This document shows positions 4,073-61,503 of a stretch of DNA of 61,503 nt, one piece after another (position 1 is the stretch's first letter; every line of letters begins with the position of its first letter). The stretch comes from a virus (lineage: Duplodnaviria; Caudoviricetes), in IMG/VR virus record IMGVR_UViG_3300021508_000029, positions 1-61,503 of that record. The stretch is one strand, 5' to 3'. A program made the translations under genes and the position numbers. The notes beneath the pieces were generated by a model that was given only the letters and a program-made list of their open reading frames with translations, had not been told where the DNA came from and did no database searches.

Positions 4073-4519
4073 ATGAAGCTTAAACTTACCTCTTCTGTAC
4101 TTTACGAAGTCGCCAAACCCGTCCCTCGAAACGAAGACATAACCGAATTATACAAGGATATGCTTACCTTAATGAAGGCTCATAAAGGTATTGGTTTAGC
4201 CGCTCCACAAGTCGGAGTATCTAAACGGCTCATAGTGTTCCGTTTAGGCTCAGTATCTTGTATACTTATCAACCCTATAATAACTAAACGTAAATTAGGT
4301 AAAACAAGAAGCATGGAAGGTTGTTTATCTTTCCCACAAACCTTAGGTAGCCAAGGTAAACGAGTTCAAATATCCCGTGATAAACAAATAACAGTCACAG
4401 GCTTTAACCAATATTGGAAACCCGTAAAACTTAAACTTTACGGGCTGGATTCTTGTGTAGTCCAGCACGAAATAGACCACCTAAACGGTGTAACAATAAT
4501 TAAACCAGAGGAAACCTAA
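4073..4519 (+). CDS. def: Peptide deformylase
   Basis: All three PDF motifs: GIGLAAPQVG, EGCLS, QHEIDHLNG. Confidence 0.96.
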   Translation: MKLKLTSSVLYEVAKPVPRNEDITELYKDMLTLMKAHKGIGLAAPQVGVSKRLIVFRLGSVSCILINPIITKRKLGKTRSMEGCLSFPQTLGSQGKRVQISRDKQITVTGFNQYWKPVKLKLYGLDSCVVQHEIDHLNGVTIIKPEET

Positions 4520-12656: not shown

Positions 12657-14207
12657 ATGTTCTCAAATCGTATAGTCCAAGTTCTTACAGACGATATTCT
12701 AATCGACCGCCCAAACCGGCAACGTAGTGATTTAACACCTGAAGCAGTTATAAGTCTTGCTTATTCAATAGCAAAAAATCAATGGATTTCTCCTATTTTA
12801 ATTAATGAAGAAACTAATCACATTGTTGCTGGCGAACGTAGACTTACTGCAGTAAAAGTGCTTCATAGCTGTATTAATGGGGATTATTCAATATTCTCCA
12901 AACCAGACGAAGCCAGAGCCAAATTAGCTCACATATGTTCTTGTAAGGTTGATTCTTGGAAAGGGTGGACAAAGATACCATCTCAATTAGGAAAAAACCT
13001 AACCGAGCAAGAACTTGTTGTTTTTGAATTCATCGAAAATGCACAACGAAGTGATCTTAAATGGCAGGATAGAGCTAAGGCAATATATACTATTCATGCT
13101 CATGGCCTGGTTACAGAAAAGAAATGGAACAATCAACAAACAGGAGTCCTTGTAGGCCTTGATCATTCAAGCGTGGCTAAATGTTTGAAATTATGGAGAT
13201 TCATGATAGCGGCTGAAGTTGAAAAAAACACTAAATTAAAATTAATTATCACTGAAGCACCTACTTTACAATCCGCGCTTCAAACAATTGACCGGCATAT
13301 TTCTCGTAGACAAGATGATGTTGTATCTTTAACCTCGACAGCAATTGCACCTAAACCCAAAAATACAAAAGATATATCATCTAAACCCGGTCCAGCTATT
13401 GGAGTAGCACCTGTAATTGGTGGGGATATACCTGAGCTTGATGAAGATTTAAACGAGTATAATGAAGATGATAATCTTGAACTTTCTTCTCTCGGTAAAC
13501 AGCTTATTTTAAACCAAGACTTTAACTCGTGGGCAGAAAATTACGCTGGTCAACCTTTTAACTTTATTCATTGTGATTTCCCTTATGGTATTAATTTTAA
13601 TAAGGGTGTTTATGGCAATACGGTAAATTCTAAAATAACAAATGATTATTTAGATAGTCCAGATGTATATTGGGATTTATTAAATATTTTAGCCAAGCAT
13701 CAAGATAAATTAATTGCACCATCTGCTCATATAATGTTTTGGTTTTCGCAAAATCAGCGTAAAGAAACTGAAGATTTTTTCAACACAAACTTTAAAAAGT
13801 GTTTGGTTCAATCACATTTAATGATATGGCATTTTAGTGAAAATTCTGGAATTATTCCAGATTCTCAAAGATATGGAGTTCGTACTTACGAAACGGCTAT
13901 GTTAATTACTTTTGGTGATCGGTTTATAGTTGAGGCTAAATCATTATGTTTTGAAAGTTCGGCTGAGCGAAAAACACGTGTTCACCGTAGCCAAAAACCG
14001 CTTGCCGTTCTTAATCATTTCTTTAGAATGTTTGTAGATGATTCAAGCCGAGTTCTTGACCCGACAGCTGGTTCAGGAACAAGCCTAGTAGCCTCACATA
14101 ACTTAGAAGCAGAAGAGATTGTCGGACTCGAAATGCAAGAAGAAACGTATAAAACTGCTGTTAAATTTATTGATGAAGAACTAAGTAAAGAAGATATTAT
14201 ACTATAG
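12657..14207 (+). CDS. ParB-like N-terminal domain plus HTH, fused to an amino-DNA methyltransferase (beta-class motif order)
   Basis: RQR...ISPILI...IVAGERRLTA...ENAQRSDL; HTH QQTGVLVGLDHSSVAKCL; MTase HCDFPYG, HRSQKP, VLDPTAGSGTS. Confidence 0.88.
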   Translation: MFSNRIVQVLTDDILIDRPNRQRSDLTPEAVISLAYSIAKNQWISPILINEETNHIVAGERRLTAVKVLHSCINGDYSIFSKPDEARAKLAHICSCKVDSWKGWTKIPSQLGKNLTEQELVVFEFIENAQRSDLKWQDRAKAIYTIHAHGLVTEKKWNNQQTGVLVGLDHSSVAKCLKLWRFMIAAEVEKNTKLKLIITEAPTLQSALQTIDRHISRRQDDVVSLTSTAIAPKPKNTKDISSKPGPAIGVAPVIGGDIPELDEDLNEYNEDDNLELSSLGKQLILNQDFNSWAENYAGQPFNFIHCDFPYGINFNKGVYGNTVNSKITNDYLDSPDVYWDLLNILAKHQDKLIAPSAHIMFWFSQNQRKETEDFFNTNFKKCLVQSHLMIWHFSENSGIIPDSQRYGVRTYETAMLITFGDRFIVEAKSLCFESSAERKTRVHRSQKPLAVLNHFFRMFVDDSSRVLDPTAGSGTSLVASHNLEAEEIVGLEMQEETYKTAVKFIDEELSKEDIIL

Positions 14208-14418: not shown

Positions 14419-15033
14419 ATGTTATTAGCAATTGTTGATACTGAAACAACTGGTATAATCGGTAAAGACTATACAAAGATTACTAATCCTCACATAGCCT
14501 CTATAACCGTTATCATATACAACACAGACGCCTCCCGTGTTCAAGCTAGCTTCAACACAATGATTTTGCCTGATGATTGGGAGATGCCACCTGGAGCCGA
14601 AGCTGTCAACGGCCTTGCTACAGAAACCCTTTTAACTTACGGCATTCCAATTAAAGATGCTATGAAAGTAGTAGGTTTACTTCTTGAACCTGCTGATTTA
14701 TTTATAGCCCACAACGCTATTTTTGACATCCGTATGGTAGCCTCAGAATTTTATCGTAGTGATTTACTTGACGAGTTAGATATTCTTCTCGGCAAAGAAT
14801 CTTTCTGCACCATGAAAGAGAGTAAGCACATTGTTCAGGCTAAGAATAAAAATGGTGGGCTTAAAAACCCTAAACTTACTGAGGCTTATGAATTCTTTTT
14901 CGAGAAACCGCTTGATAACTCTCACTCAGCTAATGCGGATACAGTAGCTTGTTTAGAAATATACTTAGCACTTCAGCACTTCAGCTTATATAAAGAAGTT
15001 GATATAAGCTCTGACGATGATGTAAACCTTTAA
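14419..15033 (+). CDS. DnaQ-like (DEDDh) 3'-5' exonuclease
   Basis: DTETTG, AHNAIFD, HSANAD. Confidence 0.92.
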   Translation: MLLAIVDTETTGIIGKDYTKITNPHIASITVIIYNTDASRVQASFNTMILPDDWEMPPGAEAVNGLATETLLTYGIPIKDAMKVVGLLLEPADLFIAHNAIFDIRMVASEFYRSDLLDELDILLGKESFCTMKESKHIVQAKNKNGGLKNPKLTEAYEFFFEKPLDNSHSANADTVACLEIYLALQHFSLYKEVDISSDDDVNL

Positions 15034-16688: not shown

Positions 16689-16904
16689 ATGAGTAAAATA
16701 AAAACTATAATTATTGTAACTAATCAAGGCGTCTCTACCCGCTCAGTCGGTGATGTTATAAACGGTATGCTTGTAGATAGAATAGTTGATCAATCAATAG
16801 AATTTGAATCTTCAATAGATTTTGTTTACGACGGATATACTGTAGAGGATAAGTTAATTTTTCAACTTATAAATCTACCTGTTGAAATCTTATATGACAA
16901 CTAG
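16689..16904 (+). CDS. Hypothetical protein
   Basis: AAGGA RBS. Confidence 0.7.
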   Translation: MSKIKTIIIVTNQGVSTRSVGDVINGMLVDRIVDQSIEFESSIDFVYDGYTVEDKLIFQLINLPVEILYDN

Positions 16905-17976
16905 TATAGTATTTATAAGCGACAAGTGGGGGTTTGATGAATCACTTTTCCAAACTCCATTTGTAGGTACAGCTGGTCAAGAGTTCTCCCGTATGTTAGC
17001 TCAGGCCGGATTTGGAAATAAAAGCCTTCCTTATAACTTCACATCTGCTATCCGCATGATGAATTATTGGGGCAAGTATAATTTTATATTCCTTAGTGTA
17101 TTCAATGAGCGTCCAGAAGATAATAATGTTGAATCATTTTATGCTCACCCAAAAGACAAAGTACCCCTTGACCGTAAACTTCCTCCCAGAAGGGTAGGCA
17201 CAAGTAATCTTTATTGCCGGGACGAGTACGCTTATCATGTATACGAATTGCATAAAAGGCTTGAGCAACTTAAACCTAATGTAATTGTAGCTCTTGGTAA
17301 CACGGCTCTCTGGGCGCTCCGTATCCCGCCCTCCATAGGTAAACTTCGTGGTAACGTGATTCAGTCTAAATGGGGGAAAGTTGTTCCAACTTATCATCCA
17401 TCTATGATTTTACGGAATTGGAGCAATCGTACAATTTCTCTCCTTGACCTTAATAAAGCAAGGCGGGAAAGTAAGAGTCCGAATATCTCCACACCGGATA
17501 GAATTATCTGGACTGAACCTACACTTGAAGATTTATACTTGTGGTGGGAAGAGCATGGGAGTAAGGCGAAACTTTTGGCTATTGATATTGAAACAGTCCG
17601 GCAAACTCAAGTTGCAGAAATAGGATTTGCATCTTCTCCCACTATGGCTCTACATATTCCTTTCGTATACAAGGATAATGGGAAATATATCTCTTGGTGG
17701 AAAACACCTGAGGAAGAACTTAAAGCATGGAACTTTGTAGAGATGGTATGTCGCTCAAGTGTTTTTAAAATCGGCCAGAACGTATGCCAGTATGATGTTT
17801 ATTTTATGATGCGAGCTTTAGGAATACCTATTATGAATATTACTGAAGACACTATGACACTTGCCCATAGCTGGCAACCGGAATTAGAAAAGAGTTTAGG
17901 TTTCCTTGGTAGCTTATTCTTGAATGAAAAAGCTTGGAAAAGTCTACGCTCTCACAGTGATAAAGAAGAATTTTAA
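16894..17976 (+). CDS. UDG-fold domain fused to the first part of a PolA 3'-5' exonuclease (split polymerase, part 1)
   Basis: PFVGTAG, PNVIVALGNTAL, PTYHPS (family 4 UDG fold); IDIET (ExoI), GQN..YD (ExoII), DTM; ExoIII absent. Confidence 0.85.
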   Translation: MTTSIVFISDKWGFDESLFQTPFVGTAGQEFSRMLAQAGFGNKSLPYNFTSAIRMMNYWGKYNFIFLSVFNERPEDNNVESFYAHPKDKVPLDRKLPPRRVGTSNLYCRDEYAYHVYELHKRLEQLKPNVIVALGNTALWALRIPPSIGKLRGNVIQSKWGKVVPTYHPSMILRNWSNRTISLLDLNKARRESKSPNISTPDRIIWTEPTLEDLYLWWEEHGSKAKLLAIDIETVRQTQVAEIGFASSPTMALHIPFVYKDNGKYISWWKTPEEELKAWNFVEMVCRSSVFKIGQNVCQYDVYFMMRALGIPIMNITEDTMTLAHSWQPELEKSLGFLGSLFLNEKAWKSLRSHSDKEEF

Positions 17977-19272: not shown

Positions 19273-21093
19273 ATGCGAATCATTAATACAGCTAAAGATA
19301 ACCCAGCAATTCTTGATACCCTCGGTCGCCTCGCTTTCTATAGTGGTATGGATAATCTCACTCTTTTCGAAATCCGAGATGGTCTATCCGAGCTTATGGA
19401 TTCCAATCGTTGGGCAACTTATAGGTTCGAGATGGAACTTCAAGCTGCTCTTCTCGAAATGTCCTTCAATGGTATCCATGTAGATCAACCAGCTCGCAGA
19501 AGTATGACTCAAGAGTTTACAAAAACAGTTACCAACCTTACCAGTCTTCTTAACGAGATGCTTGAAGCTATAGGTTATTTCAATTACTACACCCGTATGG
19601 CTATGCACGAATTTTCAGTTCAAACAGATATTGAATATACTTCTTTACCTTGTACATGGGATGAATGGAAAGATTGTTCAATCCAATGGCGTAGGGAAAT
19701 TAAACTTATTGCTGGTGATCACCTTATCCCATATCACAAGGCGCTTAAGTTAGGGGCTATCTTTAATCCTAATTCACCTGCTCAGAAACTTAAATTATTC
19801 TATCATTTTTTTGGCTCACCAGATAACTCAGTTGCCGAGCCTTATTTCTATTCCCCACCCTGGCTAAAAACAAAAGGTATTAAGGAGCATAAAAGTAGAA
19901 AGGTTGATGGAACCTACGGACCGACTACAGATCGATCCGCTATGGAAAAGATTATTAAAGCGTCTTCCAAGGGTGAGGCTCATGCTTCTTATTGGGCAGC
20001 ACCTTTTGCTCATATTTGCCTGGACATTGCTGACCTTACCAAGTCTCTTGGCTTCCTTAAATGTAAACTTGATAATGGAATGTTTCGAGCCAGCTTTGGT
20101 GTGGTAACTGAAACCGGTCGATTAAATTCTCGACAAAACGCTATGGGGTTTGGGAGCAATGCACAAAACATAACCCCTAAGCTCCGTCACATATTTATAG
20201 CTCCTAAAGGTTGGAAACTAGGTGCCCCTGATTTTGGGCAGATAGAATCTCGAATAGTTGCTGCTATATGTTTTCGTTTATTCGGAGCTAAAAATTACCT
20301 TGCTGCAGGTGAAAGCGGAGATCAACATTCCCTTAGTGCCTCAATGGTATGGGATGATCTTCCCTGGCCCGAAGATTTTACAATTCAATGGGCAATTAAA
20401 CACGGCGCATTCCCTAAAGACATGCTCAAGGCTGCAAGAAAATTGGCTGATCAAACATTCTACAGGGGTAAGAGTAGGCGAGATTTAAGTAAAACTCTTA
20501 CTCATGGTTCAAGTTATCTTGGTAAGCCACGTCAAATGTCAATCCAGTCTCATGTTGAATTACCTTTAGTTACTCACTTTCAAGAAAGATTTTTCGAAGC
20601 TTTTCCAGAAATTCCTCAATGGCATGATTGGGTAGCTGAACAACTCCAAACTACAGGTGAGATAACAACTATGTTAGGTAGAAGTCGTAGGTTTTTTGAC
20701 CGTCCTAATGATGATGCCACCTTACGTAAAGCAGTTGCTTATGAGCCTCAAAGTGTTGCCGGAGATTATACTAACCAAGCCCTTTTAAAAATAGTTAAAG
20801 CATCCAAGAAAAACCTACCCGTAAAAGTATTCCTTCAGAAACATGATGAAATTGGTTTTAGGTTTCTTGAGAAGGATGAAGAAAAAGTATGCGCAATTGT
20901 ACAGGAGCTTATGGAACAAGAACTAGAGATAGTATCCCCCTCTGGTGAAATCCGAAAATGGGTTGTGCCAGTTGATATGGAGTCAGGCTGGAACTTGGGT
21001 TTTAAATCTAAAACTAATCCTGACGGACTTGGCCACCCAGACTCCTCACGGGTAAGAACACAATCTGAGCATTGGGCTAATTGGAAAATATAA
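19273..21093 (+). CDS. Family A DNA polymerase catalytic subunit (split polymerase, part 2)
   Basis: N-terminal YSGMD (ExoIII), TETGRLNS, motif A DFGQIESR, motif B RDLSKTLTHGSSY, motif C QKHDEI. Confidence 0.93.
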   Translation: MRIINTAKDNPAILDTLGRLAFYSGMDNLTLFEIRDGLSELMDSNRWATYRFEMELQAALLEMSFNGIHVDQPARRSMTQEFTKTVTNLTSLLNEMLEAIGYFNYYTRMAMHEFSVQTDIEYTSLPCTWDEWKDCSIQWRREIKLIAGDHLIPYHKALKLGAIFNPNSPAQKLKLFYHFFGSPDNSVAEPYFYSPPWLKTKGIKEHKSRKVDGTYGPTTDRSAMEKIIKASSKGEAHASYWAAPFAHICLDIADLTKSLGFLKCKLDNGMFRASFGVVTETGRLNSRQNAMGFGSNAQNITPKLRHIFIAPKGWKLGAPDFGQIESRIVAAICFRLFGAKNYLAAGESGDQHSLSASMVWDDLPWPEDFTIQWAIKHGAFPKDMLKAARKLADQTFYRGKSRRDLSKTLTHGSSYLGKPRQMSIQSHVELPLVTHFQERFFEAFPEIPQWHDWVAEQLQTTGEITTMLGRSRRFFDRPNDDATLRKAVAYEPQSVAGDYTNQALLKIVKASKKNLPVKVFLQKHDEIGFRFLEKDEEKVCAIVQELMEQELEIVSPSGEIRKWVVPVDMESGWNLGFKSKTNPDGLGHPDSSRVRTQSEHWANWKI

Positions 21094-23371: not shown

Positions 23372-23485
23372 ATGTTTAAACTAAAACCACTAGTCCGAGC
23401 TGTAAGATATTCAATTTATTACCAACTAGTAAATCAATTTAAAAAAGAACGTTTAACCAAAAAGGAAACCCACCATGTTACTTAG
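23372..23485 (+). CDS. 37-aa basic peptide (not in ORF track)
   Basis: AGGAG RBS; overlaps the dcd start. Confidence 0.5.
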   Translation: MFKLKPLVRAVRYSIYYQLVNQFKKERLTKKETHHVT

Positions 23486-24053
23486 TCATCACGCTTTACA
23501 CCATATTGTAAAATCCGGCATACTTGAAAATGCTAAAATCGAAAACATTAACCCAGCGTCAATTGACGTATGTCTTGGGAATACAATTTTAAAAGAGAAA
23601 CCACCGAAAGCACAACCAACTGCAATTAAGGATATGGGACTTATAACTGCTACAGATTTACAAGCTAAAGAATCTATTAACTTTCAAACACTTAATTTAG
23701 ATGATGATGAAATATATCTTCTTAAACCCGGCGAGTTTATTCTTGCCCAAACTATAGAAGTATTCAATTTTCCTAATCATATTGCAGGTGAATTCCGGCT
23801 TAAATCTACAGCCGCTAGAAACGGACTTGATCAGTCTTTAGCAGTATGGTTAGACCCTGGTTGGAATGGCAGTGTTCTTACAATAGAACTTAAAAATATA
23901 TCCCTTTATCATACTCTCGTTCTTCGACCAGGAATGAAAATAGGGCAGGTTATTTTTTATCAATGTTTCCCTGTACCGGATGAAGCAAGTTATGCAAAGG
24001 TCGGGCAGTATAATAATGATAAAACAACTCAAGCTGGGAAGGAGCTTAAGTAG
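23475..24053 (+). CDS. dcd: dCTP deaminase
   Basis: INPASIDVCLG, LKPGEFILAQTIE, KSTAARNG, LDPGWNG..LTIEL, IGQVIF, Y..VGQY. Confidence 0.92.
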   Translation: MLLSHHALHHIVKSGILENAKIENINPASIDVCLGNTILKEKPPKAQPTAIKDMGLITATDLQAKESINFQTLNLDDDEIYLLKPGEFILAQTIEVFNFPNHIAGEFRLKSTAARNGLDQSLAVWLDPGWNGSVLTIELKNISLYHTLVLRPGMKIGQVIFYQCFPVPDEASYAKVGQYNNDKTTQAGKELK

Positions 24054-24095: not shown

Positions 24096-27000
24096 CTAGT
24101 CCCTAACTCTTTTATTCCAAACTCCATTGAATCTTCTCCTAACTGAGGAGATTCTTTCTTCCAACGTTTTCTCAGTCTTATCATCTCCTCTAGCTCTTGC
24201 TGCATTTAATCTAACCCTCAAACTTCTTAACTGCCTTTCCGTATCTTTAACCTGGCTACTCATTCGAAGCACCTCCTTATACTCTTCTTTAGCTTTCTTC
24301 TGTTTATCCAAATCTTTTGTCTCGCCTCTTCCATATTCCTTAATAGCTTTCTCAGCACTTGCTACCTCTTTCACCCTATCATAATACTTTTGTGTATTCA
24401 TTCGGTCACTTGGTACAGCTGCAAACTGACTAAGAATAGGTATGTTTTTAGTTTTAATCTCATCTTCACTTAACGTGCTAGGTAGTCCACTTACACTAGT
24501 CATAAACTTTAACAGCCCAGCACCAAAGAAATTAACTGTATTTTGAAAGGTACTTGGACTTATGTCTGCCCAACCAGAATGTGCTATATCTCCACCGGTA
24601 GCTTCATTTAAAGTTCTTGACAAACCCTTATATATCTCTGGAGTATTTCGCCATGCAAGTTCAGCATCAGGTTTACTTCCTGCTCCAGGAAAATTAATAG
24701 GCCGTAATGGGTTGCCTGCAAAATTTTTATTTTCCACCACTTGTATAATAGGATCAAGTGCGGTGGGTGATATACCTTGTGCGAATGAGCCCCCACCCAA
24801 GGGGTTAAATGTATTTAATAACATAGTGATGGTATCCACACCTGTATCAGCTGCTGTCCGTATACCAGCGGCATTTTCACTTAACATCCCGCCCATACGC
24901 CATACCACATTATAAACCCAGGGAGCGGGGATTTTAACGAATTCCCCACCGATTTTAATGGGTAGAATAATGTTTCGTTCTTTCTCATATACTGGTATTT
25001 TATCCCATTCACTTACCCCCTCTTCATCATCATCTCCAATTGCCCGTCCAAGGGCATCGAATGTTGCGGACATTGCAATTGTACCAGCCACCATACCCAC
25101 AAGCTTTTTAGACTTCATCATATTTTTTATAACTTGTGCATTGCCTTGTACAGTCGCATTAAAGAATAAATAAAACATACCCATGCTAGATGAGTTAAAT
25201 CCCTTCCTCGTAAAGTTTGTTGTAAGATCTTTTGCAATTCTAGCTGCTTTAACATCTCCAACTTCTTTATACAAGGCTTCAAAAGTAGCCAGTCTCATAA
25301 TGTTTTCCACAATGATATTAGCTTTTTCAATATTATTGGCCATTTTAACTATTGTCTTTACTCCGGGTGTTCCTTCAATTTTAACTTTAGCATCAAAACT
25401 TTTTATACTTGTATCCATCTCCCGTAAGGATTCAACAAATGAAATCCGACCTCCAGCTTTTTCCCATCGTTCTACCATCTGCACATTCAAGTTTGCTGGG
25501 TCTCTATTTCCTTTCCAGTACACATCCATAAGGGCTTTAAATGTTTTACCATAGCTACCTATAATTTCTTTTGTATGGCTTTCAGCTTCACTCGCTTGCA
25601 TGTTATATACAGCAGTTAATGGATCACGAATAAGATTAGCCATTAAGAAAGCCGGGCTAGCACTCACCGCAGTAAACCTTACGATACTATTAACCCACCC
25701 AAAAACCTTACTTACAGATCCATGCTGTTGTGCGCCTAACTTATTGACTGCGGCAGCAAATACTGTAGCTCGCTCATTCTGCTCGATAGGACTAATAATT
25801 AATCTTTTACCTTTCCGAATAAGTCTTATATCCGTAGGGTTTAAATTAGATGTTTTCTTTTTCTTAACAAAACCTAATTCATCTGTAGCCGCTTGTGTAG
25901 TATCATTTCCTACAGTAAACCACTCTTTCCAGTTTAATTCGTTTTCCTTAATCTGCTCATATAAAAAATTATTAGCTAAATTCTTTTGTGCCGTTGCAGC
26001 TGCTGCATGTGCACGAGCTAATGTATTTTGAATTACATGAACTGGTTTACTTGCATTAGCTGATCCATATCTTACACTAATTCCTTTTGAAGGTCCGAAT
26101 CCCTTTTGATTTAGAAAGTCAAATGTTTTTTCATAGTCAAAAGCTTCTCGCCTTAAAGGTGCGTAATGTGGTTTATCCTTTATCATTGCAAGCTGTTCAG
26201 CTTGAGTAATATTCCCGCCTTCTTCAAGTAAATCTAATTGATGCTTAGTAAGTTGATCAAACACTGTAGCAATTTCATCTATTTTAGTGTTGTTCAAATG
26301 CCGATTATATATTTCTTCTGCATCAGGAGCATTAGCTGTATTAACTAATCCTTCTCCTTTTATAAACATACCTGAAGCATGTTGTTTGAATAACTGCCAT
26401 TCACTTGAAATACTAGTCTCATCCTTACCTTCTTCTATTCTTTCATGTTGAAAATATTCTTCCATTAAAGCATACATCCGTATTTGAGCTTCTTTGTTAT
26501 CTTTACCCTCTAGAATTTTATCTCGCTTCTCCTTTACCTCGTCTTGTTTTTCTTTAGTCAATCTAGGGAGTAAGCGGTTTATAAACTCATGTGAAGCTCG
26601 TTCAGACATATCCAAGTTTGCATTATCAAGGAAGATACTTCTAGCTGCTATCCAGTCGTTAACTTCTTCGAGTTTTATTCCTGATTCATCTACAAGTTTT
26701 ACTAATGGCTCAACAAATCTACGATTAATCTCGTCTATCTTAGTTGCCCGTTTAGATTCTGCAAGGTCAAATACGTCTTTAATTCCTTCATCCTTTTTCT
26801 CGATTGTGGCAAATGAATCTATAAACTTAACATACCAAGTTTGAAAAGTACCAAGTTCGTACTGCTCTCTAGGGTTGTCTTCCTTTGCATACATAGCCCT
26901 ACGGAAATCATCAGGCGAATCAAATATAGTTGACTGGAGAGAATCAGATAAATCAGTTGTACCAATAATGGGCTTAAGTGCTTGTTTATCTACATAAAGA

Positions 27001-30000
27001 TTATCTGCCAAGTTCGCCAAGTCGCCTTTAATATCTCCGGCTTTACTTTGTAGCTTGTTAATTATCTCTACATCATCCTCGTTAAAAATAACATAGTTAT
27101 AATTGCCTTCTCCTGCTTTCCTACTTGAACTGTCTAAATATTTATTACCTCGAATACCTATTTCCAATAGCTCATTAGATACTCGTCTTTGGCTATCTGA
27201 TTTATCTATAAGCCAACCATCTAAATTTTTAACTGCATAAAACTTACTTAATTCATTATAGAACTTATTCCCTGTCATCTCGTCCGTAATATACGAGCCC
27301 ATACCTGAATTAATAATAGCATTTTTAACATAATCTGATTGTTCAGTTAATGGCTTAGTCCAATCAAGATATTGATCCTGTTCCGGCTTAAGGTCTACTT
27401 CATAAAGATTACCTTTAGTTCCATCTTCCTTTAACTTATCTCTATACCATTGTCCAACACCTTTATCATCTGCAAAATATAAACCATGTCCTTGAGCTTG
27501 AGCACCTTCACCTGTGCCAATTTTTTCCATCAAAAACTTATCAATATCATGAGGTGTACCGTGAAAGGCTCTACTAAATAACTTCTGTTCATCACCTACA
27601 AAGTCTATAAATTGTTTACTTACTCTACCTTCAAGCCCTTGAGTTAAACCCCTATACAATAACCTTTCAATTTCATTTGCTTTCTTAGGGTCATTTACTA
27701 ATTGTTCAGCCTCCCTTAGCACATTCATACCTTGTGCATTAACATCTGAAATAGTTTTTGCCAGTTTTCTAGCTTGGTTAAGTATTGGAAAGTCAACAAG
27801 ATTGGTTGAAGCTTCAAACCCTCTCCAGCCTTCTTTATCTTGAGCCAACCAATCAAGCTCTTTGAGCAAAGCTGGTTTAAGTGAGTTTATATTTGTATTA
27901 TCTAACTCACTTGATAAATAGATTGTATCTCCTTGAGTATGAGCTTTATCTAATCCCATATATTTAAACTCAACTTTTTGACCCTTTAATTCAGAGTCAT
28001 TATCAAACAATATATTTGACTCCAAAACATCACTAAGCGTTTTTACTTCTCCTTTACTCACTCCTTCTTTAACTTGAATGTCTTGCTCAAGCTTCGATCC
28101 GACTCTAGGCGCACCCAAACGATCAAGCTCCTTAGCCAGGTTCAAACTATTCCCTACAGCCATGTGTGCATATTCAACTGCAAGTTCGGGTGTAAGTTGG
28201 AAATCAATCCCAACTGCTCTAGCCGCTCGACCAATTGAAGTCTCCCTAAACTTAGCTTTAAGTGTATCAGTCATTCTACGAGATAACCCGCTCTGCTGGT
28301 TTGATTCTTGAGAGAGCTGGATATACCAAGCAGCCAGTTCTTCCTTAGCTTGAAAATTAAGCTTATTAGGAACTTTCTCTTTTCCAAATAATTTTTCTTT
28401 AGCCGCTTGTGCAACCTTATTTCCTGCCTCAGCTTGCTTAAGTATATCCTTATTAAACCCTTCTAGTTTCCCGCCCAGAAGTCGATCAAGCCCTGAGTGA
28501 GAACTCTCATGCAAAATAACACTCGCAACATTATCACCTTCGACTTGTGAGCCACCATAGATATTAAAAACTCCTCTATTTAAATCAAACTCTCCTTGTG
28601 CATTATCAGTACTTGCTTCGTTAGTAAAATTTAAAATCCCTGCTTGTTCAAGCTTATCTACAGTTTTTGGGTCTATAAACTTCCTTGCTTCCTCACGCAT
28701 CTGGTCGCTGGTTTTAGCTACAAGGTTTACATCTTTACCTTCAAACCTAGATTGTGTTCCACCTTCTGAGGCTAGGAAATCTAAATCAAGATCTTTACCT
28801 TTAACCTGTTTTTCTTGCCACAGTCCTTCAGAATCTTTAAACCATTTAGGATTATCAACTAAACCTCGGGCTAGTGCTTGCCCTTCAGTTAGCTCAAGCC
28901 CGGTTTGTTTTTTCCCTTGTGGGTTTGTTTTAATAATCCACCCATTATCTTTCTCAACCACCTCAGCATTAGCAAGACCTTCCCTGCCCATAGCAGCTTC
29001 AGCAGCACGAGGTGATTTAAACACTTCTGTATCTTTTTCCGTAGTTACTGTCCCTTCCACAAACGAACCTTGGCCTTTACGCTCAGCTTCTAATCTAGAT
29101 TCTGTTTCTAAGTTAACCTCTTGTTTTTTACGTACAGTATTACCTTTATTATCTTGACCATAAGTAATTGCCTCTTCCTTAATCTCGTCTTGCTTTTCAA
29201 ATAATTCTGCATTAGTATCATCTAAATATACTAACTCACCTTTGTCTCTAGTATATTGATAATCATCTACATCCTGATAAATAATTTCTCCTTGTTTATT
29301 TTTACCTACCTCAACATCAGCCTCTGCTACTTTAGTTAAGGGTTCCACAACATCTGGCTCTATAGCTTTAGGCTGTGTAATAATAGGCTCGACAACAGGA
29401 TCAACAACCGAACTGGCTTCCTCTATAATTTCTGGTTCGGCTACAGATTCTTGTTGGTTAATTACTTCTTCAGGCTTTTTACCTACAACCTGTTTTAGAT
29501 CTATATCTGATTTTGGTTCTTGCTTCGGGCTAGCTAAGGTCCCAAGTCCACCTCCAGCTACTCCACCAACTAGCCCACCAGCAACTATTGCATTTTGAAC
29601 CTGACTCCAATCCTCGTCACTCAAGTCCGCAAACATTGGATCTTCTTTAGCCCAGCGTACTCCAGCAATATTAACTAACTGCTGCATCCCTTCTGTAAGC
29701 CCTTCAACTCCAGCACCCAAACTACCTGCCTTAGCAGCTCGACCACTAAGCTCTAGAGCCAAATTGCGTAAAATTTTATCTCCTTTAATAACCTTTCGTA
29801 TACTCTTTTTAGCTACATCTCCAGCACCAAGGCTCTTGGCCACCTTATAAAGTGGAAGAAATTCTAATGCACCGCTTAATCCGCCTATCCCGGTAGCCGC
29901 CCATTTAGCCCTTTCAGGATCAGCACCTTCTTCGATTGCTTCTCCGAAAGCTGCTCCGCCCTCATACCCCGCACCCGTTGCAAAACCACCTACAACTTCA

Positions 30001-30551
30001 CCACGTGTAAGTATTTTCTTAACTTCAGCTGTAGCCTTATCTTTAACCCCTTGAGTTACTTGCCGACCAACAAGATTCTTACCTACCTCAGTTCCTAAAA
30101 TATCTTTAGTAGCTGAACCTATTGCTTTTTTAGCTACCTGTCTACCAACAATACCACCAACACCTAAAGCTGCTAAGTTTGGAAGCCCCTTACCCAATTG
30201 ATAACCTACAAAGTCACCGACACTTCCAGTCTCTCCTATGTCTTCAAACTTAGAAACCTTTGGAGCTTGTTGCCCAAAAGTAGCTTCCTCCATATTCCTT
30301 TTATAAACATCTAACCCATATTCGCTTGCTGGTTCAAGATACTTCTCCCCAAAGTTATCAGGAGTTACTGACTTTAAATGTTGTGCTCCTAGTGCAAGTA
30401 GTCCACCACCTATTGCTTGGCTTTCATCTCCAAACGCACGAACACCTTTACCGAATTCAGACATCTCAGGACGTAAGTCCACCTTCCTATTCGGGTCATA
30501 AGGTTCATTTGCATATTTATCATAGGGATTAAGTGCTAGTTGGTTAGCCAT
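24096..30551 (-). CDS. Large polyvalent internal virion/ejection protein (zincin peptidase-like, ART-like and LPD38-like domains)
   Basis: Gly/Ala-rich N-terminus; VILHESSHSGL (HExxH); AFHGTPH...IGTGEGAQAQGHGLYFA...NYVIF; C-terminal WDKIPVYEKERN...KIPAP...ENKNFAGNP. Confidence 0.8.
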   Translation of the reverse strand: MANQLALNPYDKYANEPYDPNRKVDLRPEMSEFGKGVRAFGDESQAIGGGLLALGAQHLKSVTPDNFGEKYLEPASEYGLDVYKRNMEEATFGQQAPKVSKFEDIGETGSVGDFVGYQLGKGLPNLAALGVGGIVGRQVAKKAIGSATKDILGTEVGKNLVGRQVTQGVKDKATAEVKKILTRGEVVGGFATGAGYEGGAAFGEAIEEGADPERAKWAATGIGGLSGALEFLPLYKVAKSLGAGDVAKKSIRKVIKGDKILRNLALELSGRAAKAGSLGAGVEGLTEGMQQLVNIAGVRWAKEDPMFADLSDEDWSQVQNAIVAGGLVGGVAGGGLGTLASPKQEPKSDIDLKQVVGKKPEEVINQQESVAEPEIIEEASSVVDPVVEPIITQPKAIEPDVVEPLTKVAEADVEVGKNKQGEIIYQDVDDYQYTRDKGELVYLDDTNAELFEKQDEIKEEAITYGQDNKGNTVRKKQEVNLETESRLEAERKGQGSFVEGTVTTEKDTEVFKSPRAAEAAMGREGLANAEVVEKDNGWIIKTNPQGKKQTGLELTEGQALARGLVDNPKWFKDSEGLWQEKQVKGKDLDLDFLASEGGTQSRFEGKDVNLVAKTSDQMREEARKFIDPKTVDKLEQAGILNFTNEASTDNAQGEFDLNRGVFNIYGGSQVEGDNVASVILHESSHSGLDRLLGGKLEGFNKDILKQAEAGNKVAQAAKEKLFGKEKVPNKLNFQAKEELAAWYIQLSQESNQQSGLSRRMTDTLKAKFRETSIGRAARAVGIDFQLTPELAVEYAHMAVGNSLNLAKELDRLGAPRVGSKLEQDIQVKEGVSKGEVKTLSDVLESNILFDNDSELKGQKVEFKYMGLDKAHTQGDTIYLSSELDNTNINSLKPALLKELDWLAQDKEGWRGFEASTNLVDFPILNQARKLAKTISDVNAQGMNVLREAEQLVNDPKKANEIERLLYRGLTQGLEGRVSKQFIDFVGDEQKLFSRAFHGTPHDIDKFLMEKIGTGEGAQAQGHGLYFADDKGVGQWYRDKLKEDGTKGNLYEVDLKPEQDQYLDWTKPLTEQSDYVKNAIINSGMGSYITDEMTGNKFYNELSKFYAVKNLDGWLIDKSDSQRRVSNELLEIGIRGNKYLDSSSRKAGEGNYNYVIFNEDDVEIINKLQSKAGDIKGDLANLADNLYVDKQALKPIIGTTDLSDSLQSTIFDSPDDFRRAMYAKEDNPREQYELGTFQTWYVKFIDSFATIEKKDEGIKDVFDLAESKRATKIDEINRRFVEPLVKLVDESGIKLEEVNDWIAARSIFLDNANLDMSERASHEFINRLLPRLTKEKQDEVKEKRDKILEGKDNKEAQIRMYALMEEYFQHERIEEGKDETSISSEWQLFKQHASGMFIKGEGLVNTANAPDAEEIYNRHLNNTKIDEIATVFDQLTKHQLDLLEEGGNITQAEQLAMIKDKPHYAPLRREAFDYEKTFDFLNQKGFGPSKGISVRYGSANASKPVHVIQNTLARAHAAAATAQKNLANNFLYEQIKENELNWKEWFTVGNDTTQAATDELGFVKKKKTSNLNPTDIRLIRKGKRLIISPIEQNERATVFAAAVNKLGAQQHGSVSKVFGWVNSIVRFTAVSASPAFLMANLIRDPLTAVYNMQASEAESHTKEIIGSYGKTFKALMDVYWKGNRDPANLNVQMVERWEKAGGRISFVESLREMDTSIKSFDAKVKIEGTPGVKTIVKMANNIEKANIIVENIMRLATFEALYKEVGDVKAARIAKDLTTNFTRKGFNSSSMGMFYLFFNATVQGNAQVIKNMMKSKKLVGMVAGTIAMSATFDALGRAIGDDDEEGVSEWDKIPVYEKERNIILPIKIGGEFVKIPAPWVYNVVWRMGGMLSENAAGIRTAADTGVDTITMLLNTFNPLGGGSFAQGISPTALDPIIQVVENKNFAGNPLRPINFPGAGSKPDAELAWRNTPEIYKGLSRTLNEATGGDIAHSGWADISPSTFQNTVNFFGAGLLKFMTSVSGLPSTLSEDEIKTKNIPILSQFAAVPSDRMNTQKYYDRVKEVASAEKAIKEYGRGETKDLDKQKKAKEEYKEVLRMSSQVKDTERQLRSLRVRLNAARARGDDKTEKTLEERISSVRRRFNGVWNKRVRD

Positions 30552-57058: not shown

Positions 57059-57540
57059 ACCGAGTCCTGTTTAATGTCACGGAAGTTATGGATGATTTTA
57101 TCTTTAGGAGTTTCCGAAGTTAGGTTATGGCAAATAGTACAAGAAGTTATGGATTTATATCCGAGCTTCTTAAGGAGTTTAGTGTATAATTCGCGCTGAT
57201 CAAAGGTGTCTGTATAAGTATATTTAACCTCGATAAGGATAGAAGTTCCATATAAAGAGATAAGTACGAAATCTGGTTGAGCAAAAAATTTATTGTTATA
57301 TTTTATCCATTTATGAGAAGCAAGTTCAAATCCTTCAAGATTTGTAAGGGCAATTAGTTCTTTTTCAACCCTTTTCTCATAACGAATACCTATTGTTTGA
57401 GCAGGTGAATTCTTTTTATCTATTTTAACAAACCCAGGAGTATCTACCCATTGCACGCTTTTGATTAAGTTATCTGGTTTTCTGGGTTTAGTTAAAATAA
57501 TATGATTAGCCGGTTTAAAGGCTTCTGTCATAAAACTCAT
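57040..57540 (-). CDS. PD-(D/E)XK nuclease (possible resolvase)
   Basis: YE...QPDF...IEVK...Q..LY. Confidence 0.7.
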   Translation of the reverse strand: MSFMTEAFKPANHIILTKPRKPDNLIKSVQWVDTPGFVKIDKKNSPAQTIGIRYEKRVEKELIALTNLEGFELASHKWIKYNNKFFAQPDFVLISLYGTSILIEVKYTYTDTFDQRELYTKLLKKLGYKSITSCTICHNLTSETPKDKIIHNFRDIKQDSVWQLRI

Positions 57541-57698
57541 AATTTAACCTTACTCTTATTCTGCATCTCTTTAACAGCCGGGGAAGAATTTAAAATTGGG
57601 TTATCTATCTGTGTAGTTAATTGATTAAGCATATCAGCTAATATGGGAGCCCGGCTAGGTAAAGAACTCGAATTATTAAGTAGTATTTTTGTTTCCAT
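57537..57698 (-). CDS. 53-aa hypothetical, first gene of the late operon (not in ORF track)
   Basis: ATGA overlap with the next gene; weak RBS. Confidence 0.4.
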   Translation of the reverse strand: METKILLNNSSSLPSRAPILADMLNQLTTQIDNPILNSSPAVKEMQNKSKVKL

Positions 57699-57734
57699 AG
57701 TATTCTGGTCTGGTCCGCGGTTTGGGTATATGTC

Positions 57735-57763
57735 AATATAACATAAGATATGGATTATTGCAA
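57735..57763 (-). promoter_or_regulatory. Candidate late-operon promoter
   Basis: Minus strand TTGCAA, 17 bp, TATATT with extended TG. Confidence 0.5.
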
Positions 57764-58059
57764 CACAATAACTTATAAACAGCGCAATCTTATACGGGGC
57801 ATCGGTTTCGGGCAGTTTGAAAAGCTGCTATATAGAGTCAACGTATGTACAAAACCCTTTGTATAAACTTTTTCATTATTTAATTTACATAGTTAGAGTG
57901 GGTCTCGATTATTTGGTATAAATAATTTTGAGCTGATGGACAATAGTACTACCAGCTACGAAATAAAGAACACCCAGGGGTCTTTCATATATATAAAAAG
58001 AGCAAGAAAACGAGGTCAGCTTACCCAGTATGGGGCTTTGAGTACGGATTAAGTGGCAC

Positions 58060-58113
58060 GGGATTTCGTGGGCAAGCTGTGCGGGATTTCGTGCCTTTGT
58101 GTGGGATTTCGTG
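58060..58113. repeat. Three direct repeats of GGGATTTCGTG
   Basis: At 58060, 58083 and 58103. Confidence 0.9.
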
Positions 58114-58178
58114 GGCACTAAGTAATCGTGTTGATTGTATATTGCCCCATACCCTTGTGCCACGCCAGAGCTGTTTGT

Positions 58179-58194
58179 TGGCACAAGCTGTGCA
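58179..58194 (+). promoter_or_regulatory. Sigma54-like -24/-12 motif
   Basis: TGGCAC-AAGCT-GTGCA. Confidence 0.45.
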
Positions 58195-58249
58195 TATATA
58201 TTATCATGTCCAGGATTAAACGTATTGATACATTAAATACAAATAACTC

Positions 58250-58277
58250 TTGACATACACGTTTAATGTGATAAGCT
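58250..58277 (+). promoter_or_regulatory. Sigma70-type early promoter
   Basis: TTGACA, 16 bp, TAAGCT with TG and an AT-rich upstream region. Confidence 0.65.
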
Positions 58278-58305
58278 GTATACATTGAACAAAACAAGTA
58301 TATAA

Positions 58306-58345
58306 ACGTGTTGGTGGTTTGATTTAATCAATACGTACATATGAT
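58306..58345. repeat. Dispersed palindromic element, copy 8 (TTGATTTAATCAA at 58319-58331)
   Basis: Read directly; just downstream of the early promoter. Confidence 0.8.
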
Positions 58346-58394
58346 TACATTATATATATGTGAACGCTCTTTAACAATTCGGGTATTAAAAAAG

Positions 58395-58438
58395 AATCAC
58401 ATGTATGTTTGGTTTTTAAACCAATCATATGTATGATT
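58395..58438. repeat. Dispersed palindromic element, copy 9 (TTGGTTTTTAAACCAA at 58409-58424)
   Basis: AATCACATGTATG...CATATGTATGATT flanks. Confidence 0.8.
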
Positions 58439-58480
58439 GCTTTATATCTCTCCCAGTAACGCACTTGTGGTTTGAGTGTG

Positions 58481-58693
58481 TTATTGTAAGCAGTCTTAAT
58501 TGACTTGGAGAAAATTATGAAAAAAGAAATTGATTATTGTGCTGGCGGTATTTATTTATCTGTCCAAGGTACAAATTTGTGTGAATATTATGATAATAGT
58601 TATTGGACGGCTGTAGAAGCTGTTATCCATTTTGAACAATATGTTAAATTTTACACCCTTTAATTAATCAAAACATAAGACTGCTTACAATAA
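58481..58693. repeat. Perfect 18-bp inverted repeat pair enclosing a small ORF
   Basis: TTATTGTAAGCAGTCTTA (58481-58498) and TAAGACTGCTTACAATAA (58676-58693). Confidence 0.9.
58517..58663 (+). CDS. 48-aa early protein (not in ORF track)
   Basis: GGAG RBS; MKKEIDYCAGGIYLSVQGTNLCEYY... Confidence 0.65.
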   Translation: MKKEIDYCAGGIYLSVQGTNLCEYYDNSYWTAVEAVIHFEQYVKFYTL

Positions 58694-59654: not shown

Positions 59655-59734
59655 TAAGACCCACATAAGATATCTTTATAAAAAGGGTATCTTGTGAGTA
59701 TCTTATTGTGAGATATTGTAATGGAGATATAAAA

Positions 59735-60232
59735 ATGAGTAAATTTACTGTAACAAGTCACGGAACCAAGTTTGATTTTGATACCGAAACTGGAGACTGG
59801 ACAGATGAGGTTATTCTTGCCCATGCAAAGCAAGGAATTAAAATCCGGCTTGACCGTTCAAGTGCCTCATTGACTAAAAAAGATGGTTCAACTGACCAAG
59901 ACCGTTTGAATTGTGCCATGAAAGTGGCTAAATCCATCCAGAGTGGTGAAATGCCTAAATCTGGTGGCGGTGGAAGTCGTTTAACAATTAAAGATCGGGC
60001 TTTAAAAGCCGCTCTGTTGGTTAAGTTAAGCTTTGAAAAGAAAGAAACCATAAGCGAGGCTTTGGAACGGTATACCAAGGCCATTGCTGAAGGACAGAAA
60101 AAGGACTTTGAGCCAGAAATGGTTGAAAAAGTAAAAGCAGCTTTGGAAAATACCCCAGTTTACAAGAACATGATTGAATTGGAAGAAAGCAAGCTGGTTA
60201 AAACAGATGATATGGGAGATTTAAGTTTATAA
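59735..60232 (+). CDS. Early protein
   Basis: Start moved to the ATG at 59735, after the shared RBS. Confidence 0.85.
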   Translation: MSKFTVTSHGTKFDFDTETGDWTDEVILAHAKQGIKIRLDRSSASLTKKDGSTDQDRLNCAMKVAKSIQSGEMPKSGGGGSRLTIKDRALKAALLVKLSFEKKETISEALERYTKAIAEGQKKDFEPEMVEKVKAALENTPVYKNMIELEESKLVKTDDMGDLSL

Positions 60233-60429: not shown

Positions 60430-60434
60430 AAGAT

Positions 60435-60471
60435 AAAAAAGACCAGTTATCACAAGGTGGCTGGTCTTTTT
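60435..60471. terminator. Probably bidirectional rho-independent terminator
   Basis: AAAAAAGACCAGTTATC-ACAA-GGTGGCTGGTCTTTTT. Confidence 0.85.
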
Positions 60472-60476
60472 ACGTA

Positions 60477-60492
60477 TGTTCCACGTGGAACT
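60477..60492. promoter_or_regulatory. parS: Chromosomal-type parS site
   Basis: TGTTCCACGTGGAACT; perfect 14-bp palindrome, 15/16 match to TGTTNCACGTGNAACA. Confidence 0.75.
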
Positions 60493-60617
60493 ATAAGTAA
60501 ATACGTTTCCCTCCTTTAATTCGTTTAAAATTCTTACCAAGCCAGGGCTTATATAGCAATATCGGATGAATATACTTTCCTACATTATGTAAATTTACCG
60601 TAGCCAAAAGGTTGCTC

Positions 60618-60858
60618 TATGCAAAACCCATGCCAAGCCTAGATAACCCATTGATTTTATCCACACCCAATTATCTATGCACAACCCATGCCAACATTTA
60701 AACCCATAAAAACACAGCAAAACTTGCCCCAAAAACCCGCTTATGCAAAACCCATGCCAAAACAAAAGCTGGTCATTTCTTAACCATAATTGCCCTTAAC
60801 AATACGTTACCAGTGAAAAACACCTCCAAAAAACCACGTTATGCAAAACCCATGCCAA
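60618..60858 (-). promoter_or_regulatory. Array of four sigma54 -24/-12 motifs
   Basis: TATGCA(A/C)AACCCATGCCAA at 60618, 60676, 60742 and 60840; minus strand TTGGCAT-GGGTT-(T/G)TGCATA. Confidence 0.75.
60644..60665. promoter_or_regulatory. IHF consensus site abutting a perfect DnaA box
   Basis: Minus strand AATCAATGGGTTA (60644-60656); TTATCCACA (60657-60665). Confidence 0.55.
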
Positions 60859-60864
60859 AGAAGC

Positions 60865-60877
60865 TAAGTTATTGATT
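60865..60877 (-). promoter_or_regulatory. IHF consensus site
   Basis: Minus strand AATCAATAACTTA. Confidence 0.55.
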
Positions 60878-60934
60878 CTAGGGGTTATTCGTACATACAT
60901 ATTCTTAACCACTTTCCAAATATTTACAGATAAA

Positions 60935-60972
60935 CATACATATGTTTGGTTTAAATCAATTCATACATACGT
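60935..60972. repeat. Dispersed palindromic element, copy 10 (TTGGTTTAAATCAA at 60946-60959)
   Basis: TATGTTTGGTTTAAATCAATTCATACATAC is identical to copy 1. Confidence 0.9.
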
Positions 60973-61014
60973 TTTAACTACCATTTTTTACGTGTAGTTA
61001 AGCATTTTGTAGGT

Positions 61015-61421
61015 AAACGTATGTATCTTAAACGTACCACAGGTCTACCAAAACGTACCACAGGTCTACCACAGGTCTACCACCCGTCTAGCACCCGTCT
61101 ACCGCTACCCACCAAACGTACCAAAACAGGATCTCACGTAAAGAAATACGTTTCCCTCCCCTTCCTATAATAGGGATTTGAGGAATACGAAAAGCTCTAT
61201 AATAAAATATATATATATATATATATAAGAGAAGAAAGACTCTTCTTTTTCTCACCTATTTAAAATATATATATATACACATATATACATACCTATCCAC
61301 TTTAAAATATATCTATATAAACCTGGCTCAAACGTATTCACGTTATCCACCCCCAGATCTCACATTGGTACGTTTAATAGACCCTTAATAGACCCCCCAT
61401 AGACCCTTAATAGACCCCCCA
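61015..61421. other. Putative replication origin
   Basis: Phased GTCTA array (61043-61101), AT-rich centre with (AT)n tracts, inverted phased TAGAC array (61378-61415), repeated AAACGTA heptamers. Confidence 0.55.
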
Positions 61422-61503
61422 TAAGTTTGGTTGTTTATTACGCGGGTAACCCATTAACGTGAACAACCCATGACAACCGTATCATTTATACATCATCATT
61501 CAC
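61368..61503. repeat. Terminal direct repeat / circular assembly overlap (copy 2)
   Basis: Matches 1-136. Confidence 0.95.

Follow-up and report, generated by a model that had tools for sequence, protein, structure and literature searches.

The subject of this analysis is a non-coding region in the virus record IMGVR_UViG_3300021508_000029 (Duplodnaviria; Caudoviricetes), which was analysed in its entirety and is here called the window (61,503 nucleotides (nt), with an estimated completeness of 97%). Plus-strand genes run from 58505 across the junction of the record's ends to 24053 and include those for a UvrD-type helicase, a PD-(D/E)XK nuclease, a ParB_N-methyltransferase, a DNA ligase, a split family-A DNA polymerase, and a primase; on the minus strand, from 57698 down to 24096, lie the genes for terminase, portal, capsid, and tail proteins and for a polyvalent protein of 2151 amino acids (aa). 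The non-coding region (60430–61503, then 137–381; about 1.3 kb) follows the gene for a conserved 174-aa protein and contains a bidirectional terminator, a chromosomal-type parS, an array of repeats of the sigma-54 (RpoN) promoter type, and a region with the layout of a replication origin. There, two specific DNA-binding machines of the host seem to be recruited, in place of the general landing pad for host proteins that an earlier reading of the sequence (the original prediction) had proposed. The region is contiguous: positions 1–136 repeat 61368–61503 at 99% identity, and a second assembly of the sequencing run reads 61503 directly into 137 onward; the genome is therefore circular or terminally redundant, and the record is classed as linear because of a single mismatch in the 136-nt overlap.

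Chromosomal parS sites share a 16-bp palindromic consensus, TGTTNCACGTGNAACA, and cluster, as loading sites for ParB (Spo0J), near oriC. The copy in the window (60477–60492), TGTTCCACGTGGAACT, departs from that consensus by one mismatch, at the last base, and its core is a perfect 14-bp palindrome. A match with up to two mismatches arises in 18 of 100 shuffles, one with up to one mismatch in 3 of 200. Relatives were collected by a terminase search, which gave 33 viral loci that share the structural module and of which some also share a homolog of the 174-aa protein, and by a metagenome scan, which added L129, L130, and L131 (82%, 60%, and 43% identity in that protein, respectively); their 357,620 nt contain four parS matches, against none in 20 shuffles. 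The 174-aa gene adjoins parS in every relative that has the site, and four of the eight loci holding the gene have parS beside it. A complete relative (G001, locus L091) has exactly one, which is perfect and lies, as in the window, directly after the terminator of the 174-aa-gene homolog; L092/G002 has two beside the homolog, and in L131 a single site, a perfect palindrome, lies shortly upstream of it. The site is absent from L097, L116, L129, and L130, the last two of which are cut close to the gene. The originally predicted parS is statistically real and kept in relatives, and, judged from sequence and position, it is probably functional. Less favourable are G003, G004, and G006 (records 8–34% complete), where no parS was detected at up to two mismatches; G004 (21.7 kb) encodes a ParB-methyltransferase and yet no parS was found in it. 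No description of host-type parS in phages was found in a literature search whose coverage left out most subscription journals and supplements.

The phage itself encodes a candidate reader of this site. The 516-aa product of the plus-strand gene at 12657–14207 is, by Pfam and PHROG matches, a ParB/Noc-like N-terminal domain fused to an N6/N4 DNA methyltransferase; its ParB/Noc-like part has a GERR box and a helix-turn-helix region with an insertion of 33 aa between them. Compared with PDB sequences it matches Noc, Spo0J, and ParB at E 1.3e-4 (3.6e-8 with a profile of three homologs), and the match spans both the GERR-box domain and the helix-turn-helix region that follows. Homologs are encoded in G001 (53% identity) and G004 (57%); in an unrelated parS-bearing record (G007, 79% complete) no ParB_N gene was found. 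From these similarities, the phage protein may be what reads parS; alternatively, host ParB may do so. Family scans of the phage open reading frames detected neither an integrase nor a ParA-type ATPase. The site is thus like chromosomal parS in being a 16-bp palindrome of the universal consensus that adjoins an origin-like region, and unlike it in standing alone, in a phage without ParA or integrase matches whose sole ParB-like protein is fused to a methyltransferase. A survey published in 2025 reports, in the portion that was available, that ParB-CTPase folds fused to N6_N4 methyltransferases are frequent in phages and of unknown role, and it covers the CTP-clamp mechanism by which ParB (Spo0J) loads at parS (PMC12704722). 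The phage fusions described there have the architecture of the 516-aa protein; the co-occurrence with a canonical parS, seen here in the window and in G001, is not mentioned in that portion. A host-type parS at the side of the origin, together with a ParB-methyltransferase, would give the fusion class of unknown function in that survey a concrete, testable role.

To the right of parS, the pattern TATGCA(A/C)AACCCATGCCAA occurs at 60618, 60676, 60742, and 60840, that is, four matches with up to three mismatches where 0.01 are expected; none of 100 shuffles reaches four. The copies belong to a family of direct repeats of 19–21 nt (starts at 60616, 60674, 60740, and 60838; spacing 58, 66, and 98). 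Sigma-54 promoters have a GG at −24 and a GC at −12 within the consensus TGGCAC-N5-TTGCW, and the minus-strand reading of the repeat, TTGGCATGGGTTTTGCA, fits it: the reverse complement, TTGGCATGGGTT(T/G)TGCATA, is an exact match to TGGCAYN5TTGCW in all four copies but one, which has a single mismatch, the two doublets lie 10 nt apart with a T-tract before the GC, and the conserved block of the repeat, 19 nt, equals the span of the −24/−12 core. The exact copies carry a T for the C at the sixth base of TGGCAC-N5-TTGCW. Site 1 (60616–60636; TTGGCATGGGTTTTGCATAGA on the minus strand) would start transcription near 60609; site 2 (60674–60694) has one mismatch to the consensus, its −12 element being GTGCA; sites 3 (60740–60760) and 4 (60838–60858, presumed start near 60831) match exactly. 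A decayed site with two mismatches, TGGGGCAAGTTTTGCT, lies at 60717–60732, where the original prediction had seen a degenerate motif, and the sigma-54 motifs that it listed have likewise held up. All five sites, four intact and one decayed, are on the minus strand and face left.

Sites of this kind recur elsewhere. Among the 36 loci of relatives, 11 matches to a relaxed pattern were counted against 0.82 in shuffles (shuffle maximum 3); a scan of the 33 terminase loci gave 8, of which 7 are in early-gene orientation. Similar sites of that orientation are present in L097, L116, L099, L107, L113, and L129, and several of the sites have a conserved GC-rich block after them and a TTGACA-type promoter farther on. 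In the window, a sigma-54-like site, TGGCACAAGCTGTGCA, lies upstream of the early operon on the plus strand (58179–58194), with three GGGATTTCGTG repeats at 58060–58113; the block is kept in L129 while its flanks diverge. The exact 17-mer of the window was found in 82 viral contigs, none of which has a protein in common with it at E 1e-5; they hold 338 consensus sites in total, compared with 1.6 in shuffles, and 31 of the 82 have 4–12 sites within 500 bp. Many of the contigs with arrays are related to each other and therefore are not independent cases. At the positions that the search pattern leaves free, 179 distinct sites prefer T before TGGCA (72%), G (75%) and then a purine (81%) after it, and T before TTGC (80%). 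The extended sigma-54 consensus has these same preferences, which is why we are confident, on the basis of letter frequencies, that the motifs are of the same class as RpoN promoters. As to the repeats in the window themselves, the balance tips slightly toward their binding sigma-54 polymerase.

The unrelated arrays are found in podovirus-like contigs (L010, L013, L057, L065, L071, L087, and 25 more), with 4–12 sites within 200–350 bp, and their sites often alternate in orientation every 21–26 bp. In the 12 array loci examined, the arrays lie between a lysozyme-terminase module and a divergent small-gene module, and those of a single orientation point at the small-gene module; six loci whose proteins were scanned are podovirus-like, one with a polymerase that shares about 50% identity with its counterpart in pelagiphage HTVC103P. 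Scans for an activator gave no Sigma54_activat match in a complete array record of 32.4 kb (G008) and weak generic AAA+ matches or nothing in two array-bearing records. A nucleotide search with a related array region had no match. To our knowledge, sigma-54 promoters are not part of textbook phage gene control, and no description of sigma-54 site arrays in phage genomes turned up within the literature coverage given above. One phage is known to carry a gene for a sigma-54-type regulator, according to the accessible part of PMC3391216.

The sites are framed by a strong terminator on one side and the origin-like region on the other. At 60436–60471, an A-run, a 16-bp stem, and a T-run form a bidirectional intrinsic terminator (fold energy −21.1 kcal/mol, z-score −7.4, not equalled by any of 200 shuffles); in the minus-strand reading, too, a U-run follows the hairpin. 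It ends the early plus-strand operon and should also stop leftward transcripts. In the relative L130, the sequence that follows directly on its terminator aligns with the window from about 60930, so that 60471–60930 has no counterpart there and is therefore regarded as a lineage-specific module. A 21-nt repeat, TAAGTAAATACGTTTCCCTCC (60494–60514, plus strand), recurs at 61139–61159, 645 nt away, with 90% identity; the two copies bracket the inserted module together with the first origin-like elements, and it is the copy at 61139–61159 that has a counterpart in L130, whereas that at 60494–60514 has none.

In the explanation that we favour, 60471–60930 would have been inserted as an accessory module between the terminator of the early operon and the conserved origin-like region. 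Its parS would be the loading site of a ParB-family CTP clamp, either host ParB or the phage ParB/Noc-like-methyltransferase, and host RNA polymerase carrying sigma-54 would bind the four intact and the one decayed leftward sites, with IHF-type bends at about −41 of the outer two (sites 1 and 4). As enhancer-dependent promoters, the sites would give rise to short non-coding transcripts of about 140–400 nt, which would cross parS and stop at the bidirectional terminator, which would couple a host signal to the state of both parS and the origin beside it. The passing polymerase would clear parS and might, to go one step further, leave negative supercoils behind it, toward the origin. The binding of sigma-54 polymerase, ParB, and IHF, the firing of the promoters, and the effect on the origin are what we infer; observed are the sequences with their statistics and orientation, the parS kept in relatives, a relative without the module, and the arrays of sigma-54-type sites in other phages. 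That the accessory module is real and made of a working parS and working sigma-54 polymerase sites is a tentative conclusion, which we hold almost, and not quite, as readily as its opposite; the full chain, with promoters acting over parS, is more doubtful still and on balance unlikely.

What lies downstream of the sites speaks against this explanation. In the leftward direction there are only 130–390 nt of non-coding DNA, parS, and the bidirectional terminator, and no open reading frame exceeds 56 aa; the statement in the original prediction that no convincing reading frame is present agrees with the length of the overlapping frames, at most 56 aa, and with an inspection by eye, in which no convincing small minus-strand frame with a ribosome site was seen below the sites. 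The notion of a minus-strand small RNA acting as a structured molecule was rejected, since the degree of structure in the 179-nt minus-strand RNA does not exceed that of shuffles (z −0.2). Sigma-54 promoters require an ATP-driven activator; no enhancer could be identified for the sites, no phage-encoded activator was matched, and domain scans of the phage detected neither Sigma54_activat nor Sigma54_DBD. A palindrome does lie at about −122 of site 4, but it belongs to an element found throughout the phage. The sites further point away from the AT-rich region, as the priming promoters of T7 or T4 origins do not. The four copies are recent duplicates and therefore count as about one independent consensus match, and the plus-strand site at 58179 can also be read as a sigma-70-like promoter, TTGGCA-N18-TATCAT, and therefore is ambiguous. 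T7 has tandem early promoters, A1–A3, and phi1.1A/B at its primary origin; the window resembles it in its row of promoter-type sites, which stand in non-coding DNA near a putative origin, while those of T7 are sigma-70 or phage-polymerase promoters that lead into genes or the AT-rich region, and those considered here are of the sigma-54 type and point away.

Among the rival explanations, the sites could be distant late promoters that read leftward through the terminator and antisense to the early genes into the minus-strand structural operon, which begins at 57698. The structural genes are indeed on the same strand and downstream in that direction, the divergent region (57500–58560) has no minus-strand sigma-54-like site at up to two mismatches, and in L131 a reverse-facing consensus site is found in the divergent region, pointing away from the 174-aa gene; however, a strong bidirectional terminator and about 2.7 kb of antisense early genes intervene, and a sigma-70-like site lies directly upstream of 57698, which together make this reading most improbable. 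Alternatively, the sites may be decoys that bind sigma-54 polymerase (or free sigma-54) and ParB and never fire, so that the replicating genome would drain the small RpoN pool; sigma-54-dependent stress and repair operons would be shut off or, in a variant, closed complexes would act as barriers beside the origin. That no gene follows the sites and no activator is encoded agrees with such titration, as do the multiplication of near-ideal sites with a T-tract and the 21–26-bp alternation in other viral contigs, estimated to be too close for all sites to hold polymerase productively. Also counted in its favour is that the sigma-54 holoenzyme binds promoters in an inactive state, as stated in the part of PMC4591121 that was available. 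Against it, the single-orientation arrays of other phages point at genes, as working promoters would, relatives manage without the module, and titration needs no fixed place, yet the module sits exactly between terminator and origin. We consider the decoy, in either variant, improbable, if a good deal less so than late promoters.

The origin-like region bears on another alternative. It includes an inverted repeat of two 12-nt arms, ATACATACGTTT ... AAACGTATGTAT (60963–61026; 100% complementary), for which related inverted ACGT-rich repeats were seen by eye at the same place in L097, L116, and L131. Iteron-like plus-strand repeats in an 11- or 21-nt phase follow at 61030–61100, AAACGTACCACAGGTCTACCA and then GTCTACC units, where relatives have 11-nt-phased ACAACC-type repeats; next come a block conserved with L130 on the plus strand (GAAATACGTTTCCCTCC ... 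CTATAATAGGGATTTGAGGAATAC, 61139–61195) and an AT-rich (TA)n stretch (61195–61325), a candidate DNA-unwinding element that is found at the same place in relatives. Four 11-nt ATAGACCC units on the plus strand (61377–61420) lie within the 136-nt stretch that is repeated at 1–136. Relatives, where visible, have the same order: the 174-aa gene, a terminator, and non-coding DNA with an inverted ACGT-rich repeat, 11-nt-phased direct repeats, and (TA)n; in several, the direct repeats recur in inverted orientation. This shared layout is a putative replication origin or, alternatively, a packaging site. A search with a 17-nt word taken from the conserved block gave 11 viral contigs, none of them related.

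Lying beside such a region, the 21-nt repeats could themselves be iterons or control repeats for a phage initiator or regulator with the core AACCCAT(G), in which case the likeness to sigma-54 promoters would be incidental. They are direct repeats of 19–21 nt that adjoin the origin-like region, as in the iteron-type origins and copy-control arrays of plasmids and phage P1 (oriR/incA), where repeats of about 20 nt stand beside an AT-rich region. The heptamer AACCCAT, part of the repeat, is enriched, also occurs outside the four copies, is always on the plus strand, and has 11 of its 21 genomic copies in the non-coding region; relatives carry A-tract/CCC boxes at the same place and C/A-rich CCCA-type boxes to either side of the origin-like core. 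A phage protein could therefore be what binds the repeat, a point against sigma-54 polymerase as its ligand, and many early reading frames have no known function. Iteron-type origins, however, consist of regularly spaced direct repeats and come with a cognate Rep or initiator gene; here the spacing is irregular (58, 66, and 98), no initiator family was matched among the 60 open reading frames scanned, many early ones of which lack an assigned function, L130 has no such repeats, and the separate 11-nt-phased repeats at 61030–61100 fit an iteron origin better. The repeat, moreover, unlike those of plasmids and P1, has the sequence of a host sigma-factor consensus. The probability of a 21-mer fitting TGGCAYN5TTGCW by chance is estimated at about 1e-5, the conserved block of the repeat coincides with the −24/−12 span, and the same consensus recurs elsewhere in relatives and in unrelated phages. 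Iterons are thus a minority possibility, to which we give about the weight of the decoy.

The original prediction had further listed sites for IHF (integration host factor), DnaA, and FNR, and had likened the whole to a chromosomal origin. All motifs it listed are present where it placed them; only the sigma-54 sites and parS exceed chance, while IHF is borderline and DnaA at chance level, and in relatives parS is kept, IHF and DnaA sites are not, and the module is absent from L130. Both IHF matches are exact with respect to the consensus, WATCAANNNNTTR, and both are on the minus strand: AATCAATGGGTTA (60644–60656) is centred at about −41 from the presumed start of site 1 and AATCAATAACTTA (60865–60877) at about −40 from that of site 4, each lying 7–8 nt beyond a repeat copy at the same offset. 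The non-coding region has these two IHF matches where 0.12 are expected; genome-wide there are 8 against 6.85, and six of six relatives lack them. In the −24/−12 promoters Pu, nifH, glnHp2, and pspA, IHF assists the looping of an enhancer. The window shares with these the GG/GC doublets 10 nt apart, the T-tract, and an IHF consensus just upstream of two copies, and differs from them by four to five tandem copies, no downstream gene, no recognisable enhancer or activator, a location in a phage beside an origin-like region, and IHF matches that are very close (about −41). IHF centred at −41 would touch the polymerase footprint; this and the absence of IHF and DnaA sites from all six relatives are further points that disfavour the explanation given above.

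The DnaA claim found no support: the single exact box, TTATCCACA (60657–60665, plus strand), is one of 3 in the genome where 3.84 are expected, none is present in the non-coding regions of the six relatives, and it probably is a chance match. Origins like oriC have a cluster of several DnaA boxes that adjoins an unwinding element; here there is one exact box, and the AT-rich stretch is about 530 nt away. DnaA-like words with up to one mismatch number 7 in the non-coding region against 2.0 expected, several of them, by eye, inside the sigma-54 repeats. The E. coli elements datA and DARS2 are made of DnaA boxes and an IHF site, and the exact box abutting an IHF-consensus site at 60644–60665 is reminiscent of them; unlike in those, there is but one exact box, not kept in relatives and at chance level genome-wide.

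The FNR-like palindrome, taken originally for a local feature, is instead a repeated element of the phage (60937–60972; core TTGGTTTAAATCAA at 60946–60959), at which homology to L130 begins. It differs by one mismatch from TTGAT-N4-ATCAA, the FNR/CRP consensus, which is sited at promoters. Further copies are at 741, 11797, 22053, 30574, 47914, and 58409, with a degenerate one near 3754. Counted with the one at 60946, the genome has six copies of the exact type and one variant, mostly in short gaps between co-directional genes. From this distribution, a phage-specific element is a better reading than a host FNR site, and the element could be a terminator or processing hairpin, or else the operator of a phage regulator. 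Words of the CATACATA type often flank the palindrome or its mirror, and in L129 the element forms a perfect 35-nt hairpin just after the 174-aa gene.

In its general form, the landing pad, on which ParB, sigma-54, IHF, DnaA, and FNR would all coat incoming DNA, draws on the presence of all five consensus matches and on the excess of IHF matches (2 vs 0.12) and DnaA-like words (7 vs 2.0) in the non-coding region. Its exact DnaA box is single and expected by chance, several near-matches belong to the sigma-54 repeats, the FNR-like palindrome is phage-wide, and six of six relatives are without the DnaA and IHF matches; in this breadth the idea is very improbable. What is retained of it is a non-coding cis element of host-type sites beside an origin-like region, without DnaA and FNR; and because DnaA is single and at chance level, the FNR-like element phage-wide, and IHF not conserved, the likeness to a chromosomal origin reduces to an origin-proximal parS.

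Both parS and sigma-54 promoters are known kinds of sites. What is new is their use: a lytic-looking phage that encodes a ParB-methyltransferase keeps a canonical parS beside its origin, and sigma-54 sites are multiplied in the non-coding DNA of phages. Should the arrays work, the early steps of phage development in many marine and vent bacteria would hinge on signals that the host conveys through enhancer-binding proteins, or else phages would use titration to disarm the stress responses that depend on sigma-54. A wider generalization would be that many phages of rpoN-bearing bacteria, including this one and a large marine podovirus-like group, use near-ideal sigma-54 arrays to run or gate early transcription and to capture scarce RpoN polymerase, and that the parS at the origin loads the phage ParB-methyltransferase as a CTP-driven sliding clamp that methylates and thereby protects the genome outward from the origin; no description of either strategy was found in the literature covered, and the idea is speculative, and we would be surprised to see it hold in full.

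The 174-aa protein next to the origin-like region (59708–60232, also listed as 59735–60232, plus strand; 165–174 aa) has no assigned fold. It has 36 homologs (P0001–P0036), all unnamed, of 165–184 aa with an invariant glycine-rich linker, two of which (P0020 and P0027; 79–81% identity) are encoded on contigs of 63,949 and 39,651 nt. No Pfam or PHROG family was matched, and an AlphaFold model (predicted local distance difference test (pLDDT) 84) had no structural counterpart in PDB or BFVD at an E-value of 0.001 or below.

As for the host, a proteobacterium is plausible from the TTGACA-type −35 boxes, the terminase relatives (34–42% identity), which infect mostly Proteobacteria, and one match in genome collections, a 2.6-kb contig of a metagenome-assembled genome labelled Undibacter that is too weak to name the host; sigma-54 and parS are present in many phyla. 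The sequence is present in one DNA sequencing run, from a hydrothermal-vent metagenome, which may be the sample it came from, and no RNA run is among the runs listed. At the nucleotide level, the region has no match in phage and plasmid collections, and no cultured phage is close; Rfam gave no match, no tRNA was found, and no phage RNA polymerase was found among the open reading frames scanned.

Several minor features may be added. At the far end of the non-coding region, a sigma-70-like promoter, TTGACA-N17-TACGGT (309–337, plus strand; a pattern match only), precedes the next plus-strand operon, whose first gene starts at 382. The early control region (58054–58277) has a TTGACA-N16-TAAGCT promoter at 58250, and that of L129 has two exact sigma-54 consensus sites flanking two TGTCATTAAATGACA palindromes. 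In an unrelated record (G007, 83.7 kb, 36% GC; L055:2745-6564), five sigma-54-type sites on one strand each precede a plus-strand gene and share a conserved downstream block; this record carries a parS, TGTTTCACGTGGAACA, beside two 17-nt direct repeats. The 2151-aa polyvalent protein of the window (24096–30551, minus strand), whose gene closes the structural operon, is probably a multi-domain protein delivered by the virion; it contains an LPD38 domain and weakly matches ART-PolyVal. The family-A DNA polymerase is split into an exonuclease gene, a gene with a uracil-DNA-glycosylase-like domain, and the polymerase proper (14419–15033, 16882–17976, and 19273–21093) with other genes between them, and auxiliary genes at 802–1179, 4073–4519, and 23475–24053 encode a NUDIX hydrolase, a peptide deformylase, and a dCTP deaminase.

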